NCBI GenBank assembly: GCA_902593075.1
Contig: CACJHA010000001.1
Span: forward strand, 124-64,123
DNA length: 64,000 nucleotides
Direction: 5' to 3'
DNA from: an uncultured Bacteroidota bacterium
GTDB lineage: Bacteria; Bacteroidota; Bacteroidia; Flavobacteriales; Flavobacteriaceae
Shown: positions 45,785 through 51,533 of the stretch, piece by piece
How the letters are laid out: each line of letters starts with the position of its first letter
How positions within the stretch are numbered: the stretch's first letter is position 1
Position numbers and translations under genes: made by a program
Notes under the pieces: model-generated
Seen by the model: only the letters and a program-made list of their open reading frames with translations
Databases searched by the model: none
Told to the model about the DNA's origin: nothing

Positions 45785-46867
45785 TCATTTAACAATTTCT
45801 TTTTCCTGATGATTTATTGATTCTTGATGTATTGCTTTGAATAATTTTAGCACAAATTCTTCAGATAATCCGTGGTTTTCACCATCAAGTACCATTTTAC
45901 CGAGTATTTCATTCCATCTTTTGTTCTGAAGAACAGCAACATTATTTTTCTTTTTCAACTTTCCTATAGAATCAGAAATTCTCATTCTTTCTCCTAGAAT
46001 TTGAAGTAGATTTTGGTCAGCGATATCAATTTGTGTCCTTAAATTATCTAATTCATTAACATAGTCCTTCTGTTCAATCGTTGTATTCCGCATTTTTAAA
46101 TCTTTCATTATTTGTATCAGTCGATTTGGAGTTACCTGTTGTGCAGCGTCACTCCATGCGTTATCAGGGTCTATATGTGTTTCGATCATCAAACCATCAA
46201 AGTTAAGGTCCAATGCCATTTGACTGAGATCAAATATCAAGTCTCTTCGACCTGAAATATGAGATGGATCGCAAATAATTGGAATATCAGGGAATTTATT
46301 TTTTGTCTCAATAGCAATTTGCCATTCAGGGTTATTTCTGTACTTCGATTTTCCTTGAGATGAAAAACCTCTATGAATAAGACCTAACCTAGTTATATTT
46401 GCCGACTGAAGCCTTTCAATAGCACCCAGCCAAAGTGAAAGGTCGGGGTTGACCGGATTTTTCACAAGAACTATTTTGTCAGTCCCATTTAACGAATCTG
46501 CAATTTCTTGAACTATAAAAGGACTAACTGTTGATCTGGCTCCAATCCATAACACGTCAATATCATGATCTAATGCTAATTTTACATGGTCTTTATTAGC
46601 AACCTCAGTAGCTGTCAAAAGCTCAGTTTCTTTTTTAACCCTCTGAAGCCATTTTAAACCTATGGATCCAACACCTTCAAAATTACCAGGTCTAGTTCTA
46701 GGTTTCCAAATCCCAGCTCTGTATACTGTAACGTCTGTTTTCTTTAATTGATTAGCTATTTTTAAAACCTGTTCTTCAGTTTCAGCACTGCAAGGACCCG
46801 CAATAACAAGTGGGTGGGATAAATTAAATTTTTTTAACCAATCGTTTGTTTTTGTTTTTCTTTCCAT
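45785..46867 (-). CDS. aroG: Bifunctional 3-deoxy-7-phosphoheptulonate synthase (type I-beta) / chorismate mutase
   Basis: 360 aa with a KDO8P/DAHP-synthase-like TIM barrel (GPCSAE, CDPSH). The C-terminal ~90 aa form an AroQ chorismate mutase (LRTQIDIADQNLLQILGERMRIS...). Confidence 0.88.
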   Translation of the reverse strand: MERKTKTNDWLKKFNLSHPLVIAGPCSAETEEQVLKIANQLKKTDVTVYRAGIWKPRTRPGNFEGVGSIGLKWLQRVKKETELLTATEVANKDHVKLALDHDIDVLWIGARSTVSPFIVQEIADSLNGTDKIVLVKNPVNPDLSLWLGAIERLQSANITRLGLIHRGFSSQGKSKYRNNPEWQIAIETKNKFPDIPIICDPSHISGRRDLIFDLSQMALDLNFDGLMIETHIDPDNAWSDAAQQVTPNRLIQIMKDLKMRNTTIEQKDYVNELDNLRTQIDIADQNLLQILGERMRISDSIGKLKKKNNVAVLQNKRWNEILGKMVLDGENHGLSEEFVLKLFKAIHQESINHQEKEIVK

Positions 46868-46873
46868 TTCGAT

Positions 46874-47731
46874 TTAATTTTTAGGTTTAATTGTATCAAG
46901 TATTTTCTTTAGTTTATTTGTTTTAATCATTTGACTTTTTAAATCAGTATAATTTTCATTTTGAATTTTTAACCGAAATTGTTTTAGGTTTTCAACATAT
47001 GCATCCAAAATTTCCAGTATATTTTCCCTATTGTCTTTAAAAATAGATGTCCACATTTCAGGGGAACTTTTTGCTAATCTTACAGTAGATTCAAATCCAC
47101 TTCCAGCAAAATCTAATATATTTTGATTATTTTTTTCAGATTCCATAACTGTCTTACCAAGCATGAAAGAGCTTATATGAGACAAGTGCGAAACTATTGC
47201 CATTTTTTTGTCATGTTCTTCTGGGTTCATATATCTAATTTTCATACCCATAGAATTAAAAATTGATTCAGCCCATTGCAGTAAATCAGGTCTTGTCTTA
47301 CTAGTTTCACAAAGAATCTGAATTTTTCCATTGAAGAGATTTTTTATACTTGCCTCAGGGCCAGAAAATTCATTACCCGCTATTGGGTGAGTGGCTAAAA
47401 ATTGGTCTCTCTTAGGATGTTTTTCCACTGATTTACACAAACTAAATTTTGTAGAACCAACATCCCATACTAGAGCATCTTTATTCAAATTGTCAAGAAT
47501 AAAAGGTAAAAGCTTTAAGCTTTCACTTACAGGAACAGATAAAATCACCCTATCAGCGCTATTTAAATTTTCTAAACTATCAATATTATCGATAACTCCA
47601 ATATTCTTTGCATATTCAATGTTTATCTCATTTTTATCAATTCCGTGTATTTGAATTTTATCCAAAAGATTCCTTAAATCTTTCGACATAGACCCTCCTA
47701 TTAGACCGGTTCCAATTAAAAATAATTTCAT
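46874..47731 (-). CDS. tyrA: Prephenate (or arogenate) dehydrogenase
   Basis: 285 aa with Rossmann motif LIGTGLIGGS, plus HPIAG and SHLSH. Confidence 0.88.
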   Translation of the reverse strand: MKLFLIGTGLIGGSMSKDLRNLLDKIQIHGIDKNEINIEYAKNIGVIDNIDSLENLNSADRVILSVPVSESLKLLPFILDNLNKDALVWDVGSTKFSLCKSVEKHPKRDQFLATHPIAGNEFSGPEASIKNLFNGKIQILCETSKTRPDLLQWAESIFNSMGMKIRYMNPEEHDKKMAIVSHLSHISSFMLGKTVMESEKNNQNILDFAGSGFESTVRLAKSSPEMWTSIFKDNRENILEILDAYVENLKQFRLKIQNENYTDLKSQMIKTNKLKKILDTIKPKN

Positions 47732-48876
47732 GATCTCAATCTTTTTAGAACCTCATTCATTTTTTTTGTTTCCGTACATAAAGAAATCCTAACATATCCT
47801 TCTCCTTGAGATCCAAAAATTGATCCAGGAGATATAAAGAAATTATATTTATCCAGCAAATAGTCAACAAACTCTTCTGATTTTAAAGAATCATTTAAAA
47901 TTTTACACCATATAAACATTCCAACACCGCTTTTAGAATATGAAAGATTAAGTTCACTTGCAATTTGTTCTGCTGATTTTCTTCTTTCAGAATACTCTTT
48001 ATTTAGTTTTTCAAACCATCGTTGACCACTACTAAGGGCATTTATTGCTCCTTGCTGAACACAATAAAACATACCTGAATCAAAATTTGATTTAACTTTT
48101 AACACAGCATCTATATACTTTGATTCACCAACCATCATACCAACTCTCCATCCCGCCATATTAAATGATTTACTAAGCGAATTCATTTCTATGGCGACTC
48201 CTTTGGAACTTTTTAGGGATAAAATACTTCTAGGTTTTTTATTTAAAATGAAACTATATGGATTGTCATTTATTAAAAGGATATTATTTTTCTCTGCCCA
48301 ATAAACTAATTCATTTAATTTTTTTTCATCGAAATCTGCACCAGTTGGCATGTGTGGATAATTTATCCACATTAATTTGATTTTTTTTGTTTTCAACCTT
48401 TTTAAATCGTCCATTTTTGGATACCAATTATTTTCCTCAGACAAATTGTAATAAAAAGTCTCTGCTCCAACTAATTTTGAAACGGAATTGTAAGTTGGAT
48501 ATCCTGGGTTTGGAATTAATACCCCATCACCCTTGTTGAGGAAAGCCATGGAAATATGCATAACTCCCTCCTTAGATCCCATTAGAGGTAAAATTTCGTC
48601 AATCGGATTTAACTCCACACCATATTGTTTAAAATAAAATTTTGAAATAGCCTCCCTAAGTTCTGGTAAACCAATATAACTTTGATACATACTCGACCTT
48701 TCATCACGAATGCTTTCTGATAAAGCTTGTTTTACTTCAGGACTAGGAGATAAATCTGGGCTTCCAATAGCCATGTTAATTATAGGCCTTCCAGAAGAAA
48801 TATAATTATTTATTTCTCTCATTTTTTTTGAGAAATAATATTCATCTACATATTTTAATCTTTCAGCTGTGAACAT
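47728..48876 (-). CDS. Class I/II PLP aminotransferase embedded in the aromatic operon
   Basis: 382 aa: NMAIGSPD, NYPHMPTG and SLSKSFNMAGWRVG. It overlaps both neighbouring genes. Confidence 0.85.
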   Translation of the reverse strand: MFTAERLKYVDEYYFSKKMREINNYISSGRPIINMAIGSPDLSPSPEVKQALSESIRDERSSMYQSYIGLPELREAISKFYFKQYGVELNPIDEILPLMGSKEGVMHISMAFLNKGDGVLIPNPGYPTYNSVSKLVGAETFYYNLSEENNWYPKMDDLKRLKTKKIKLMWINYPHMPTGADFDEKKLNELVYWAEKNNILLINDNPYSFILNKKPRSILSLKSSKGVAIEMNSLSKSFNMAGWRVGMMVGESKYIDAVLKVKSNFDSGMFYCVQQGAINALSSGQRWFEKLNKEYSERRKSAEQIASELNLSYSKSGVGMFIWCKILNDSLKSEEFVDYLLDKYNFFISPGSIFGSQGEGYVRISLCTETKKMNEVLKRLRS

Positions 48877-49696
48877 TATTTTTATATTCTAAGTATTGGC
48901 CGATTATTTTAAATTCTAAAGCCATAATTTTAAGGATTGAAACAGCTTTTTGAAAAAAATCTGTGTTTTCAAATTTTACGTCAACAAAAAAAGCATACTT
49001 CCCCGGTGTTTTTATAACCGGTAGGGATTGTATCTTGGTTAGGTTTAAAAGACAATCACTTAGAACATTCAGTATAGCAGCCAAACTCCCCCTTTGATGA
49101 TCTAAGATAAATTTAAGTGATGCCTTGTTATAAAATTTTTTTTTGAAAGGCTCAAGGTTATTTTTTAGAATAACAAATCTCGTTACATTATTATTGATTG
49201 TCTGGATAGACTCTGATATCACATTTAGATTATATGTTTTAGCAGCTTCTTTTGATGCTATAGCTGCAATTCCTTTTAATTTCTTCTCTGAAATTAGTTG
49301 AGCTACTTTTGCTGTATCAGTTGCCTCCACTAAACTAATATGATCATAATCATTAAAAAATTCTTTACATTGTAAAAGTGCCATTGGATGAGAGTGCACT
49401 TCTTTAATATCTTTCAATGTTTGGTTTTCAAAACACATCAAATTATGATTAATGGAAAAATTATATTCACCTATTACGTGTACATTGGAATTGTCAATCA
49501 AAGCATAATTTGGTAAAATTGAACCTGCAATTGAATTTTCAAGAGCCATTACTCCCCTTTCGACTTCCTTTTGATTTAGCCTATCAATAATTTCTTGAAA
49601 AGTATTACATTCAACAATATCAACAGTTGGTCCAAAATAATTCAGAGCAACTAAGTGGTGAAAAGAACCTTTAATACCTTGAATAGCTATTTTCAT
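48863..49696 (-). CDS. pheA: Prephenate dehydratase
   Basis: 277 aa: IAIQGIKGSFH, ENSIAGS, TRFVIL and a C-terminal ACT domain. Confidence 0.9.
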   Translation of the reverse strand: MKIAIQGIKGSFHHLVALNYFGPTVDIVECNTFQEIIDRLNQKEVERGVMALENSIAGSILPNYALIDNSNVHVIGEYNFSINHNLMCFENQTLKDIKEVHSHPMALLQCKEFFNDYDHISLVEATDTAKVAQLISEKKLKGIAAIASKEAAKTYNLNVISESIQTINNNVTRFVILKNNLEPFKKKFYNKASLKFILDHQRGSLAAILNVLSDCLLNLTKIQSLPVIKTPGKYAFFVDVKFENTDFFQKAVSILKIMALEFKIIGQYLEYKNNVHS

Positions 49697-49706
49697 TTCA
49701 TTTATT

Positions 49707-49736
49707 TAAAAAAAAAGTCCTGAAAATTCAGGACTA
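49707..49736 (-). terminator. Attenuator terminator hairpin upstream of pheA
   Basis: Minus-strand RNA reads AGUCCUGA-AUUU-UCAGGACU (8-bp stem, 49735-49716). It runs into a 9-U tract and ends 11 nt before the pheA AUG. Confidence 0.8.
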
Positions 49737-49766
49737 CCATTTTATTTACAAGCGTATACTATAGTC

Positions 49767-49826
49767 CTAACTATTATTAAAATAAAAGTAGAAGAAGTAA
49801 AACTTTGTTGTAATTATATTTTTCAT
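49767..49826 (-). CDS. Phe/Tyr-rich leader peptide MKNIITTKFYFFYFYFNNS
   Basis: ATG AAA AAT ATA ATT ACA ACA AAG TTT TAC TTC TTC TAC TTT TAT TTT AAT AAT AGT TAG. Codons 9-16 are all Phe or Tyr. The stop codon overlaps the antiterminator segment AGGACUA. Confidence 0.75.
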   Translation of the reverse strand: MKNIITTKFYFFYFYFNNS

Positions 49827-49833
49827 TTAGCTG

Positions 49834-49841
49834 CAAATCTA
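49834..49841 (-). promoter_or_regulatory. Candidate -7 promoter box (TAGATTTG) for the phe/tyr leader
   Basis: TAnnTTTG match 7 nt upstream of the leader ATG, with a TTTG 19 nt further upstream (-33-like). Confidence 0.5.
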
Positions 49842-49919
49842 ATATCCTAAGAGATAAAAACAAAATATTTGATATGTTTATTAAATAACAATCATTAAAT
49901 TAATTTGAAAACTTAGAAT

Positions 49920-51533
49920 ATGAACATATCGAATTTTAGATTGAAATTAATATTAATTGTATCATTTATAATGATTCACTCTTGTCAAAAAATAAGTAAA
50001 AAAGAGGATTTAAATGACTTTGTTTACTTAGAAACTACAATCGAAAGCCTAATTATTGGTTATAAAAATGGAGATATTAAGGCTGTCGAGGTTATAAAAG
50101 AATATATAGATAGGATTAAAAAAATTGATATGGCTGGTCCTAATCTTCGTTCTTTAATACAAGTAAATCCCGATGCTGTTAAAATTGCTTCTGAACTTGA
50201 TAATCTATTAGCTGAAGGTGAATTAAAAGGTCCTTTGCATGGGATCCCGGTAATCTTAAAAGATAATATTGACAGTGGTGATAAAATGAATACAACTGCA
50301 GGTTCAAGGGCATTAATTAATTCAAAAGCAAATGAGGATGCATTTATTGTAAAAAAGCTAAGAGAATCAGGTGCAGTGATATTAGGGAAAGCAAATCTAA
50401 GCGAATGGGCAAATTTTCGGGGTCAAAATTCAACAAGTGGATGGAGTGGTATCAAAGGCCAAACAAAAAACCCCTATGTACTTTCAAGAAACCCTTGCGG
50501 TTCAAGCTCAGGGTCTGGGGTTGCTGTTTCAGCTAATTTAACTGTATTAGCTATAGGTACTGAAACTAATGGTTCAATCATGTGTCCATCTAATGCCAAT
50601 GGGATAGTGGGAATAAAACCTACAGTTGGGTTAATTAGTAGAACAGGAATTATACCTATTTCATTTACTCAAGATACTTCTGGCCCAATGGCAAGAACAT
50701 TAAGTGATGCGGTTATAGCTTTAAATGTTATGAAAGGACAAGACTCTTTAGATTCCAAAACATTATCCATCCCTAATAAAAATTTGGACTACACTAAATT
50801 TTTGAGAAAAGGAGGGATAAAAAATAAAAGGATTGGAGTATACAGTTTACCATTAGGAAACAAATCTAGAAGGAAAGGATATAATGCTGATGTTGACAGT
50901 TTATTTAAAAAATCTATTAAATTAATTAGTTCACTAGGTGGAGAAATTATTGAGATAGATACAATTAATCACAGAGATAATGGTGTTCATTCATTCAATG
51001 TAATGCTTCACGAATACAAAGATGGATTAAACAAATATTTTAAAAATTTAAAAAATGATTCTCAGATAAAGAATTTAGATGACTTAATTGAGTTCAATGA
51101 AAAAGATTCAATTGAACTTAAATTTTTTAATCAGTTATATTTAAAACTAGCAAATGAAACAGAAGGAACGGAAAGTGATAAATATAAAAATTCTCTTTTA
51201 TTACTTAATAAATATAGTAAAGAAGACGGTATTGACAGGGTGATGAATAAACATAATCTAGATGCAATTATATCTCCAACAGGTAGCCCTGCTTGGAGTT
51301 CAGATCTTTTAAACGGTGACAATTATCACATTGGAAGTTCTTCCCCTGCAGCCCGAGCTGGTTATCCAAATATCACAATTCCCATGGGTAATGTTCATGG
51401 ACTTCCAGTTGGGATTTCATTTTTTGGTAGGGCTTGGAGTGAGAGCAAACTAATTGAAATTGCATTTGATTTCGAACAAGTTTCAAAAGCAAGGATTATT
51501 CCGAATTTTAAATTAAATGACGAAAATCTTTAA
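49920..51533 (+). CDS. Amidase (amidase-signature family), probable lipoprotein
   Basis: 537 aa with signal plus lipobox IHSCQ. AS blocks: GIPVILKDNI, GGSSSG-like CGSSSGSGVAV and GTETNGSI. Confidence 0.85.
   Translation: MNISNFRLKLILIVSFIMIHSCQKISKKEDLNDFVYLETTIESLIIGYKNGDIKAVEVIKEYIDRIKKIDMAGPNLRSLIQVNPDAVKIASELDNLLAEGELKGPLHGIPVILKDNIDSGDKMNTTAGSRALINSKANEDAFIVKKLRESGAVILGKANLSEWANFRGQNSTSGWSGIKGQTKNPYVLSRNPCGSSSGSGVAVSANLTVLAIGTETNGSIMCPSNANGIVGIKPTVGLISRTGIIPISFTQDTSGPMARTLSDAVIALNVMKGQDSLDSKTLSIPNKNLDYTKFLRKGGIKNKRIGVYSLPLGNKSRRKGYNADVDSLFKKSIKLISSLGGEIIEIDTINHRDNGVHSFNVMLHEYKDGLNKYFKNLKNDSQIKNLDDLIEFNEKDSIELKFFNQLYLKLANETEGTESDKYKNSLLLLNKYSKEDGIDRVMNKHNLDAIISPTGSPAWSSDLLNGDNYHIGSSSPAARAGYPNITIPMGNVHGLPVGISFFGRAWSESKLIEIAFDFEQVSKARIIPNFKLNDENL

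Follow-up and report, generated by a model that had tools for sequence, protein, structure and literature searches.

A predicted Phe/Tyr leader-peptide attenuator upstream of the pheA operon in an uncultured marine member of the Flavobacteriales

The analysis presented here concerns a putative transcription attenuator located upstream of pheA (prephenate dehydratase) in a 64-kb stretch of DNA (G+C content 30.4%; hereafter referred to as the window) from contig CACJHA010000001.1 of an uncultured member of the Flavobacteriaceae. The element, which was read on the minus strand within positions 49600–50000, lies in front of an operon of four partly overlapping genes: pheA, an aminotransferase gene, tyrA and a gene encoding a bifunctional DAHP synthase/chorismate mutase (DAHPS/CM). 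We propose that a ribosome-mediated leader-peptide attenuator adjusts the expression of this operon to how much charged tRNA-Phe and tRNA-Tyr is available, a reading to which we assign a probability of about 0.85. In the organism of the window the evidence is that of sequence and comparison; from it we infer the transcription start, translation of the leader, termination at the U tract, the response to Phe and Tyr, and the regulation itself.

The leader open reading frame (ORF) reads ATG AAA AAT ATA ATT ACA ACA AAG TTT TAC TTC TTC TAC TTT TAT TTT AAT AAT AGT TAG, with the TAG codon at 49769–49767. Its codons 9–16 (49802–49779) comprise five Phe and three Tyr codons in an unbroken row, as reported in the initial annotation of this DNA, and the operon behind it makes precisely these two amino acids. 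Across all six frames, the 64-kb window holds no longer run of Phe/Tyr codons. TTY and TAY codons are favored because of the low G+C content; even so, when the whole 64 kb was simulated 100 times with a Markov-1 model, a run of at least eight such codons arose somewhere in only three cases, and the run found in the leader is beyond chance.

Downstream of the aromatic run are two helices that compete for one segment (Table 1). The terminator hairpin, which at the DNA level is AGTCCTGA-ATTT-TCAGGACT (49735–49716), is followed by a U tract ending 11 nt before the pheA ATG (49696). The initial annotation had counted nine U residues; nine consecutive T are indeed present (49716–49708), but the first of them closes the stem, which leaves a tail of eight. 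It had also recognized that AGGACTA (49768–49762), at the leader stop codon, is complementary to TAGTCCT (49736–49730). This pairing stands, but it is only the 7-bp core (−6.3 kcal/mol) of a 10-bp antiterminator helix, UUAGGACUAU:GUAGUCCUGA (−10.6 kcal/mol, compared with −11.5 kcal/mol for the terminator). The −7 promoter box, the 7-nt gap behind it, the mini-ORF, the complementary segments, the hairpin and its distance from pheA were all located exactly where that annotation had placed them, and the Pfam domains agree with the identities it had given to all four downstream genes. The pheA hairpin is the sole terminator-like site directly before a long ORF in the window, and a search of the window for other attenuators (terminator-before-ORF sites) found none.

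The proposed mechanism is as follows. Transcription would start from a sigma-A promoter (TTTG, 19 nt, TAGATTTG) a few bases before the leader AUG, and the 19-codon leader would be translated while the RNA polymerase advances. When Phe and Tyr are plentiful, the ribosome would arrive at the stop codon and cover UUAGGACUAU (49770–49761); with this arm covered, GUAGUCCUGA would fold with UCAGGACU into the terminator and transcription would end at the U tract, with pheA beginning 11 nt further on. When either amino acid is scarce, the ribosome would stall in the eight-codon run, approx. 11–32 nt upstream of the arm. The arm, left free, would pair with GUAGUCCUGA as soon as this is made, the terminator would be blocked, and the polymerase would read through into pheA.

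A search of species-representative genomes with the PheA protein revealed eight loci with 89–93% identity, all of them in metagenome-assembled or single-cell genomes of uncultured marine Flavobacteriales or 'Bacteroidetes'. A metagenome scan with a PheA alignment added the best 80 further loci (55–64% identity, one at 89%), and the resulting comparative set contained 85 distinct pheA upstream regions covering 55–93% PheA identity (individual loci are given below as L numbers). In all six close loci with enough upstream sequence the ORF likewise comprises 19 codons and has kept its aromatic core (e.g. MKTNITNIFYYFYSYFNNS and MRTITTTTSYYLYFYFNNL), and the same six retain the terminator and either TAGGACTA or TAGGGCTA, the latter making a G–U pair. 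At approx. 65% identity, homologs share both the operon and the divergent amidase gene with the window; their leader is MKNTFFYYNSF[FY]YFY[QK]EA[DE][RG]TL, behind which come AAGTCCTGAA...TTCGGGACTT and a U tract. Their arm, AGGACTT, pairs with AAGTCCT where the window has AGGACTA:TAGTCCT; this exchange is compensatory and affects a position that the terminator stem does not require.

An ATG-initiated mini-ORF with at least five Phe/Tyr codons out of eight consecutive ones was present in 85 of the 85 upstream regions, as against 4.3% of Markov-1 simulations; at a threshold of at least six out of eight the figures were 66% and 0.8%. The leader was followed by a hairpin and a U tract in 80 distinct loci (those in which both parts were scored), and every one of these 80 leaders contained both Phe (2–7) and Tyr (2–5) codons. 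The conservation of pheA upstream regions, named in the initial annotation as a check, thus speaks for the element, both through this mini-ORF and through compensatory changes in the two stems. Approximately 40% of the leaders have one Trp codon in a fixed place just before the Phe/Tyr run, e.g. YFWNGFYFYFFF or QNWFYFFF (L018, L019, L021, L026, L029, L036, L037, L041, L043, L045, L048, L052, L053, L055–L058, L062–L065, L068, L069, L077, L078, L081, L082, L084 and L092), which suggests that these lineages may sense all three aromatic amino acids. The leader of the window has no Trp codon.

Both helices were tested for covariation in a MAFFT alignment of 64 distinct sequences (A2). The terminator helix was paired in 98.8% of cells; its double-change cells numbered 48, compared with 12.5 in shuffles (0/500), and pairing dropped to 28–50% when the partner was slid; RNAalifold independently gave the identical eight pairs, and the T columns of the U tract were invariant. 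For the antiterminator, 80.9% of cells were paired overall, and the five core pairs reached approx. 97–100% with GC↔AU swaps; pairing was 28–46% with the partner slid, and 84 double-change cells were counted against 36.7 in shuffles (0/500). The duplex between the arm and the terminator 5′ arm had an energy of −12.0 kcal/mol when both came from the same locus and −8.3 kcal/mol across loci. Arm and partner change together, as in AGGACTA:TAGTCCT, CGAGAC:GTCTCG, CAGGATTGTG:TACAATCCTG, CGGGAC:GTCCCG and CGGAAC:GTTCCG. Since the shared segment covaries with both of its partners, the alignment bears the signature of a two-state switch.

The position of the aromatic run relative to the arm was equally constrained. 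Counted from the first base of the last aromatic codon, the first paired base of the arm lay at a distance of 10–16 nt in 70 of the 76 distinct leader variants (mode 12–14) and of 11 nt in the window, where that codon is a Phe codon; the stop codon, meanwhile, ranged in position from −23 to +9 relative to the arm. Fixed spacing combined with a shifting stop is what a stall-sensing design predicts. Variants with an early stop (...FFFRK-stop; L049, L067, L087 and L093) retain the nucleotides GGATTGTGCTATGGTTATTTGA, which are coding elsewhere; likewise, GGATTGT(G/C)CTATGGTTATTTGA, coding in the relatives ending ...SRSEDCAMVI-stop (L050, L061, L070), is retained in the early-stop variants. The 3′ part of the leader is therefore constrained as RNA (the antiterminator arm) and not as peptide. 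Constraint falls on the place of the stall, on how far it lies from the arm and on the RNA pairing, but not on the C-terminal peptide.

Masking simulations gave outcomes of the same kind. With the ribosomal A site on the stop codon, the antiterminator was abolished (−0.5) and the terminator formed, and with the ribosome stalled at codons 9–12 the antiterminator formed once its 3′ arm had been transcribed (−10.0). Conservation, the covariation of both helices, the geometry and these simulations therefore agree with the two-state attenuator that the initial annotation had proposed.

Table 1. Predicted elements of the pheA attenuator and genes of the operon (window coordinates)
Feature	Position	Strand	Basis or remark
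−33 promoter element TTTG	49861..49864	−	19 nt upstream of the −7 box; read from sequence
−7 promoter box TAGATTTG (TAnnTTTG)	49834..49841	−	promoter function predicted from the consensus
Predicted transcription start zone	49827..49830	−	by analogy with F. psychrophilum promoters
Leader ORF MKNIITTKFYFFYFYFNNS, 19 codons + TAG	49767..49826	−	sequence; homologous mini-ORFs in relatives
Predicted ribosome stall site: regulatory row of eight Phe/Tyr codons (F Y F F Y F Y F)	49779..49802	−	
Antiterminator 5′ arm UUAGGACUAU	49761..49770	−	overlaps leader stop codon; covariation
Shared segment GUAGUCCUGA	49728..49737	−	antiterminator 3′ arm; 49735–49728 also terminator 5′ arm
Terminator hairpin AGUCCUGA-AUUU-UCAGGACU, 8 bp, −11.5 kcal/mol	49716..49735	−	G+C-containing stem; folding and covariation
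U tract, 8 U past the stem	49708..49715	−	intrinsic terminator tail
pheA (prephenate dehydratase), first structural gene	48863..49696	−	Pfam PF00800, 3.8e-57
Class I/II aminotransferase gene, overlapping the pheA end	47728..48876	−	Pfam PF00155, 5.1e-64
tyrA (prephenate dehydrogenase; PDH_N + PDH_C)	46874..47731	−	Pfam PF02153 + PF20463
Bifunctional DAHP synthase/chorismate mutase gene (DAHP_synth_1 + CM_2), last operon gene	45785..46867	−	Pfam PF00793 + PF01817

The initial annotation had pointed to Rfam (Phe_leader and related models) as a further check, and no family there matches the region. A search of positions 49400–50200 against Rfam 15 at E≤10 returned only noise, the best match being MicC (22 bits, driven by the terminator), and six related loci gave no match at gathering level. 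The element is therefore outside the Phe_leader (RF01859), Bacteroid-trp, T-box and riboswitch families of Rfam. We built a covariance model, R1, from an alignment of 57 sequences (A3) from which the clade of the window was excluded. R1 matched 49708–49778 on the minus strand (43.1 bits, E=2.4e-5) as the sole significant site in the window; the only other match below E=0.1 was the same palindromic hairpin on the opposite strand. The locus thus combines the parts of a leader-peptide attenuator (an ORF rich in end-product codons, an intrinsic terminator before the first gene, a mutually exclusive antiterminator and a position-sensing geometry) with those of the Flavobacteriaceae pheA 5′ leader element, namely the R1 match, the position before pheA and the aminotransferase gene, and operon synteny.

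The latter element has been described before, which answers the question, left open in the initial annotation, of whether a combined Phe and Tyr version was known. Guérin et al. 2021 (ISME Commun 1:33, PMC9723704) mapped transcription start sites (TSSs) and transcribed regions in Flavobacterium psychrophilum and annotated a homologous element (THC0290_N_0195) as a pheA leader-peptide attenuator in SI Appendix D9 and Table S7. Their grounds were tandem aromatic codons, condition-specific read-through and downstream co-expression peaking in minimal medium. The TSS and a separate 170-nt 5′ transcript were measured, with expression of 11.5–12.4 for the 5′ segment where that of pheA was 5.9–7.9 (PMC9723704), as expected for premature termination. 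According to the same authors, the element is conserved in other Flavobacteriaceae genera and has no Rfam family. It shares with the window an aromatic mini-ORF (MNTNNTFYSNNSFYFYWNIGRDCYMVI), a TAnnTTTG sigma-A promoter and a hairpin with a U tract, all in front of pheA and an aminotransferase gene. We found that the published RNA aligns to the profile of the window relatives, with a leader of the same subgroup as L085 and L050, and that its arm pairing, GGGATTGT:ACAATCCC (−12.6 kcal/mol), starts 13 nt past the last aromatic codon.

The element of the window is therefore an ortholog of one already reported, in supplementary material and without structural analysis: the published account contains no analysis of the antiterminator, covariation or spacing. 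There are also differences between the two. The window leader has 19 codons, none of them for Trp, and ends at the antiterminator arm, whereas that of F. psychrophilum has 27 codons and reads through the arm; the predicted 5′ untranslated region (5′UTR) is 2–4 nt in the window and about 20 nt in F. psychrophilum. In the window, tyrA and the DAHPS/CM gene lie behind the same attenuator, in contrast to F. psychrophilum, in which a DAHP synthase gene has its own TSS. What the present comparison adds is the covariation of both helices, the stall-to-arm spacing, the Phe+Tyr (± Trp) make-up of the leaders, the lack of a 1:2 hairpin (see below) and the short predicted 5′UTR.

The arrangement TTTG...TAnnTTTG is the sigma-A consensus quoted for F. 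psychrophilum, in which the TSS was mapped 4–5 nt past the G of the −7 box in three promoters (PMC9723704, table). The layout of TTTG, a 19-nt spacer and TAnnTTTG is common to L001–L006 and to L009, L011 and L013 (65% PheA identity). In the window, 7 nt (CAGCTAA) separate the −7 box (49841–49834) from the leader ATG at 49826. Because the box ends 7 nt before the ATG and a TSS would lie 4–5 nt past the box, the 5′UTR of the leader mRNA is predicted to be only approx. 2–4 nt long, i.e. nearly leaderless. The gap between the box and the leader ATG is 7–9 nt in two clades, that of the window (L001–L006, L014) and a second one (L022, L023, L027, L030, L035, L042, L044 and L054), and 16–19 nt in others. 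The surroundings of the −33 element, AAATATTTTGTTTTTATCTC (49842–49870, minus strand), are nearly invariant in the clade of the window and recognizable as AAAATTTGTTTTTGTC at 65% PheA identity; to judge from the sequences, they are conserved beyond the need of a bare TTTG and may represent an extended promoter element or a binding site.

Several observations weigh against the proposed attenuator. A 5′UTR of the predicted 2–4 nt would require initiation of the leader in the leaderless manner. In the masking simulations a ribosome stalled at the last Phe codon partly covered the arm, and only a partial helix remained (−3.6). The terminator is barely more stable than the antiterminator, and with helix energies so nearly equal the outcome depends on kinetics. 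The whole-region fold was no more stable than shuffles (z = −1.0), a value that is expected for an AU-rich switch and gives no support. Moreover, a conserved 1:2 hairpin (an anti-antiterminator or pause hairpin formed by the leader-coding segment and the arm) was looked for across 79 loci and not found, so that read-through, by way of the antiterminator fold, is the predicted fate of transcripts that are not translated, in contrast to E. coli trp and phe.

The minimum free energy structure of the window does pair the Phe/Tyr codons with the AGGA arm. As a conserved 1:2 hairpin this pairing was rejected: over the 79 loci the leader-coding:arm duplexes had −4.9 kcal/mol, the same as with codon-shuffled leaders (−4.9 kcal/mol), and one locus of the 79 fell below the 5% level. 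The comparison of 1:2 and 2:3 pairing energies that the initial annotation had suggested therefore yields no 1:2 state beyond that expected of shuffled codons. As there is no supported 1:2 hairpin, we treat the element as a three-segment design; such a hairpin is typical of leader-peptide attenuators, not obligatory. For the clade of the window and the second clade with 7–9 nt spacing, we tentatively suggest a variant, which we hold to be possible but rather doubtful, in which the attenuator operates on a leaderless or near-leaderless ORF. Read-through of the untranslated transcript would then be the default, because no 1:2 anti-antiterminator competes, and termination would be an active consequence of a ribosome at the stop codon. 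If true, this would be a minimal three-segment form of leaderless amino-acid attenuation, not yet documented in Bacteroidota.

Other explanations of the element were also weighed. The hairpin might mainly control the translation of pheA, with the leader ribosome setting initiation alone or besides termination. In full-length transcripts the terminator-form hairpin and the U tract could hinder initiation at pheA, and the antiterminator form would free that region. In the window only 11 nt separate the end of the U tract from the pheA AUG, and in several relatives (e.g. L036, L041, L073 and L075), which read TTTTTTATG, the tract directly abuts it; initiation in Bacteroidota is generally known to need an unstructured upstream region, and the absence of Shine-Dalgarno (SD) sequences was noted in the F. 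psychrophilum study (PMC9723704). We nevertheless consider this explanation unlikely. A hairpin with an invariant tail of 8–9 U is the signature of an intrinsic terminator, in some relatives it lies 70–150 nt from pheA, too far to occlude the start, and in F. psychrophilum the 5′ segment accumulates separately while pheA RNA is low, which points to termination (PMC9723704). Even less probable, in our estimate, is a genuine switch that is set by a small-molecule riboswitch, a T-box-like tRNA contact or an RNA-binding protein, with the Phe/Tyr ORF incidental to it. Such a possibility draws on the fact that translation of the leader is a prediction and that the very short 5′UTR could disfavor canonical initiation. 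Against it, no Rfam riboswitch or T-box matched the window region at E≤10 or, at gathering level, any of six related loci, the RNA from promoter to terminator (approx. 110 nt) shows conserved structure only in the two competing helices, and the ATG-initiated frame keeps its aromatic codons, and their spacing to the arm, while nucleotides and flanking residues change.

The least probable explanation is a chance AT-rich mini-ORF beside a hairpin that is an ordinary terminator or insulator and plays no part in regulation. At 30% G+C, codons for Phe and Tyr are common, as reflected in the 3% of simulated windows containing a run of at least eight, and the hairpin is palindromic and terminator-like on the plus strand too. 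Yet the upstream amidase gene is divergent, so that there is nothing for the hairpin to terminate, and any terminator placed between a promoter and the operon it drives is by its position an attenuator. Conservation over approx. 80 loci extends, moreover, to the ORF, the spacing and the two helices, and these comparative data effectively refute the chance explanation.

The proposed Phe/Tyr attenuator can be compared with several known systems. E. coli pheL-pheA shares its logic and its target, with a short ORF carrying a codon run, mutually exclusive antiterminator and terminator, and the terminator just before pheA, although the window element has no sequence or structure match to the E. coli Phe_leader (RF01859), even at E≤10. 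E. coli pheL contains Phe codons only, and tyrA of this bacterium is controlled separately by TyrR. In the window, in contrast to the Phe-only pheL, the run mixes Phe with Tyr codons, in keeping with an operon for both amino acids; in addition, a 1:2 pause or anti-antiterminator hairpin is without statistical support, and initiation must be SD-independent, unlike in pheL-pheA. Leaders with codons for several end products are found in E. coli ilvGMEDA (Ile/Leu/Val) and thr (Thr/Ile), and mycobacteria have leaderless poly-Cys leader ORFs, in which attenuation is effected by a leaderless short ORF; the likeness to the latter holds only if the 2–4 nt 5′UTR is right. The ilvGMEDA, thr and mycobacterial leaders belong to unrelated phyla, have unrelated sequences and respond to other amino acids. 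Candidate attenuators in Bacteroidetes/Chlorobi were reportedly described by Vitreschak and co-workers (FEMS Microbiol Lett, 2004).

Within the Bacteroidota, a counterpart in type is the Bacteroid-trp leader (RF01692), a Trp leader of Bacteroidetes (Weinberg et al. 2010, PMC2864571) that was also mapped in F. psychrophilum as a 5′ transcript (PMC9723704). It is likewise an attenuator of the leader-peptide type before an aromatic amino-acid operon; it differs in having Trp codons and preceding the trp operon, and the window region contains no match to it. Gurvich et al. 2011 (PMC3082878) stated that 'Bacteroides' may potentially use pheL, and we found nothing specific on a Bacteroidetes pheA leader in Naville & Gautheret 2010 or Korolev et al. 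2016.

The upstream neighbor of the pheA operon is the divergent amidase gene (49920–51533, plus strand), and the hairpin as a terminator of a neighboring gene was rejected on account of this orientation. The amidase gene is also the conserved upstream neighbor in the relatives of 65% identity (L009, L011–L013), in which genes for fatty-acid hydroxylase/CDGSH, a short-chain dehydrogenase and an ABC ATPase come next. The neighborhood being kept at 65% identity, synteny around the attenuator is old.

The near-palindromic hairpin (49716–49735) is terminator-like on the plus strand as well, with the tail ACCATTTTAT, and this reading gave the weak second covariance-model match (24 bits); no plus-strand gene ends there, and the score looks like a by-product of symmetry. 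In L019, L021, L029, L045 and L055 there are 70–150 extra bases between the terminator and pheA, although mis-calls of the pheA start are possible in these cases, and L021, L029 and L045 share a second hairpin, A[AG]TCC[ACT]GAAC..GTTT..GGAT, without a U tract.

The conceptual gain is small, in that pheA leader-peptide attenuation is textbook knowledge and the flavobacterial version had been reported. The analysis nevertheless provides a well-supported regulatory annotation for the genome of an uncultured marine member of the Flavobacteriales, and shows a single Phe+Tyr (often +Trp) leader before the whole aromatic-branch operon across the recovered relatives among the Flavobacteriia. It supplies what Rfam lacks, namely approx. 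80 aligned members, covariation for both alternative helices and a conserved spacing. With its short predicted 5′UTR and without a 1:2 hairpin, the element would be a compact system for attenuation in the absence of SD-dependent initiation.

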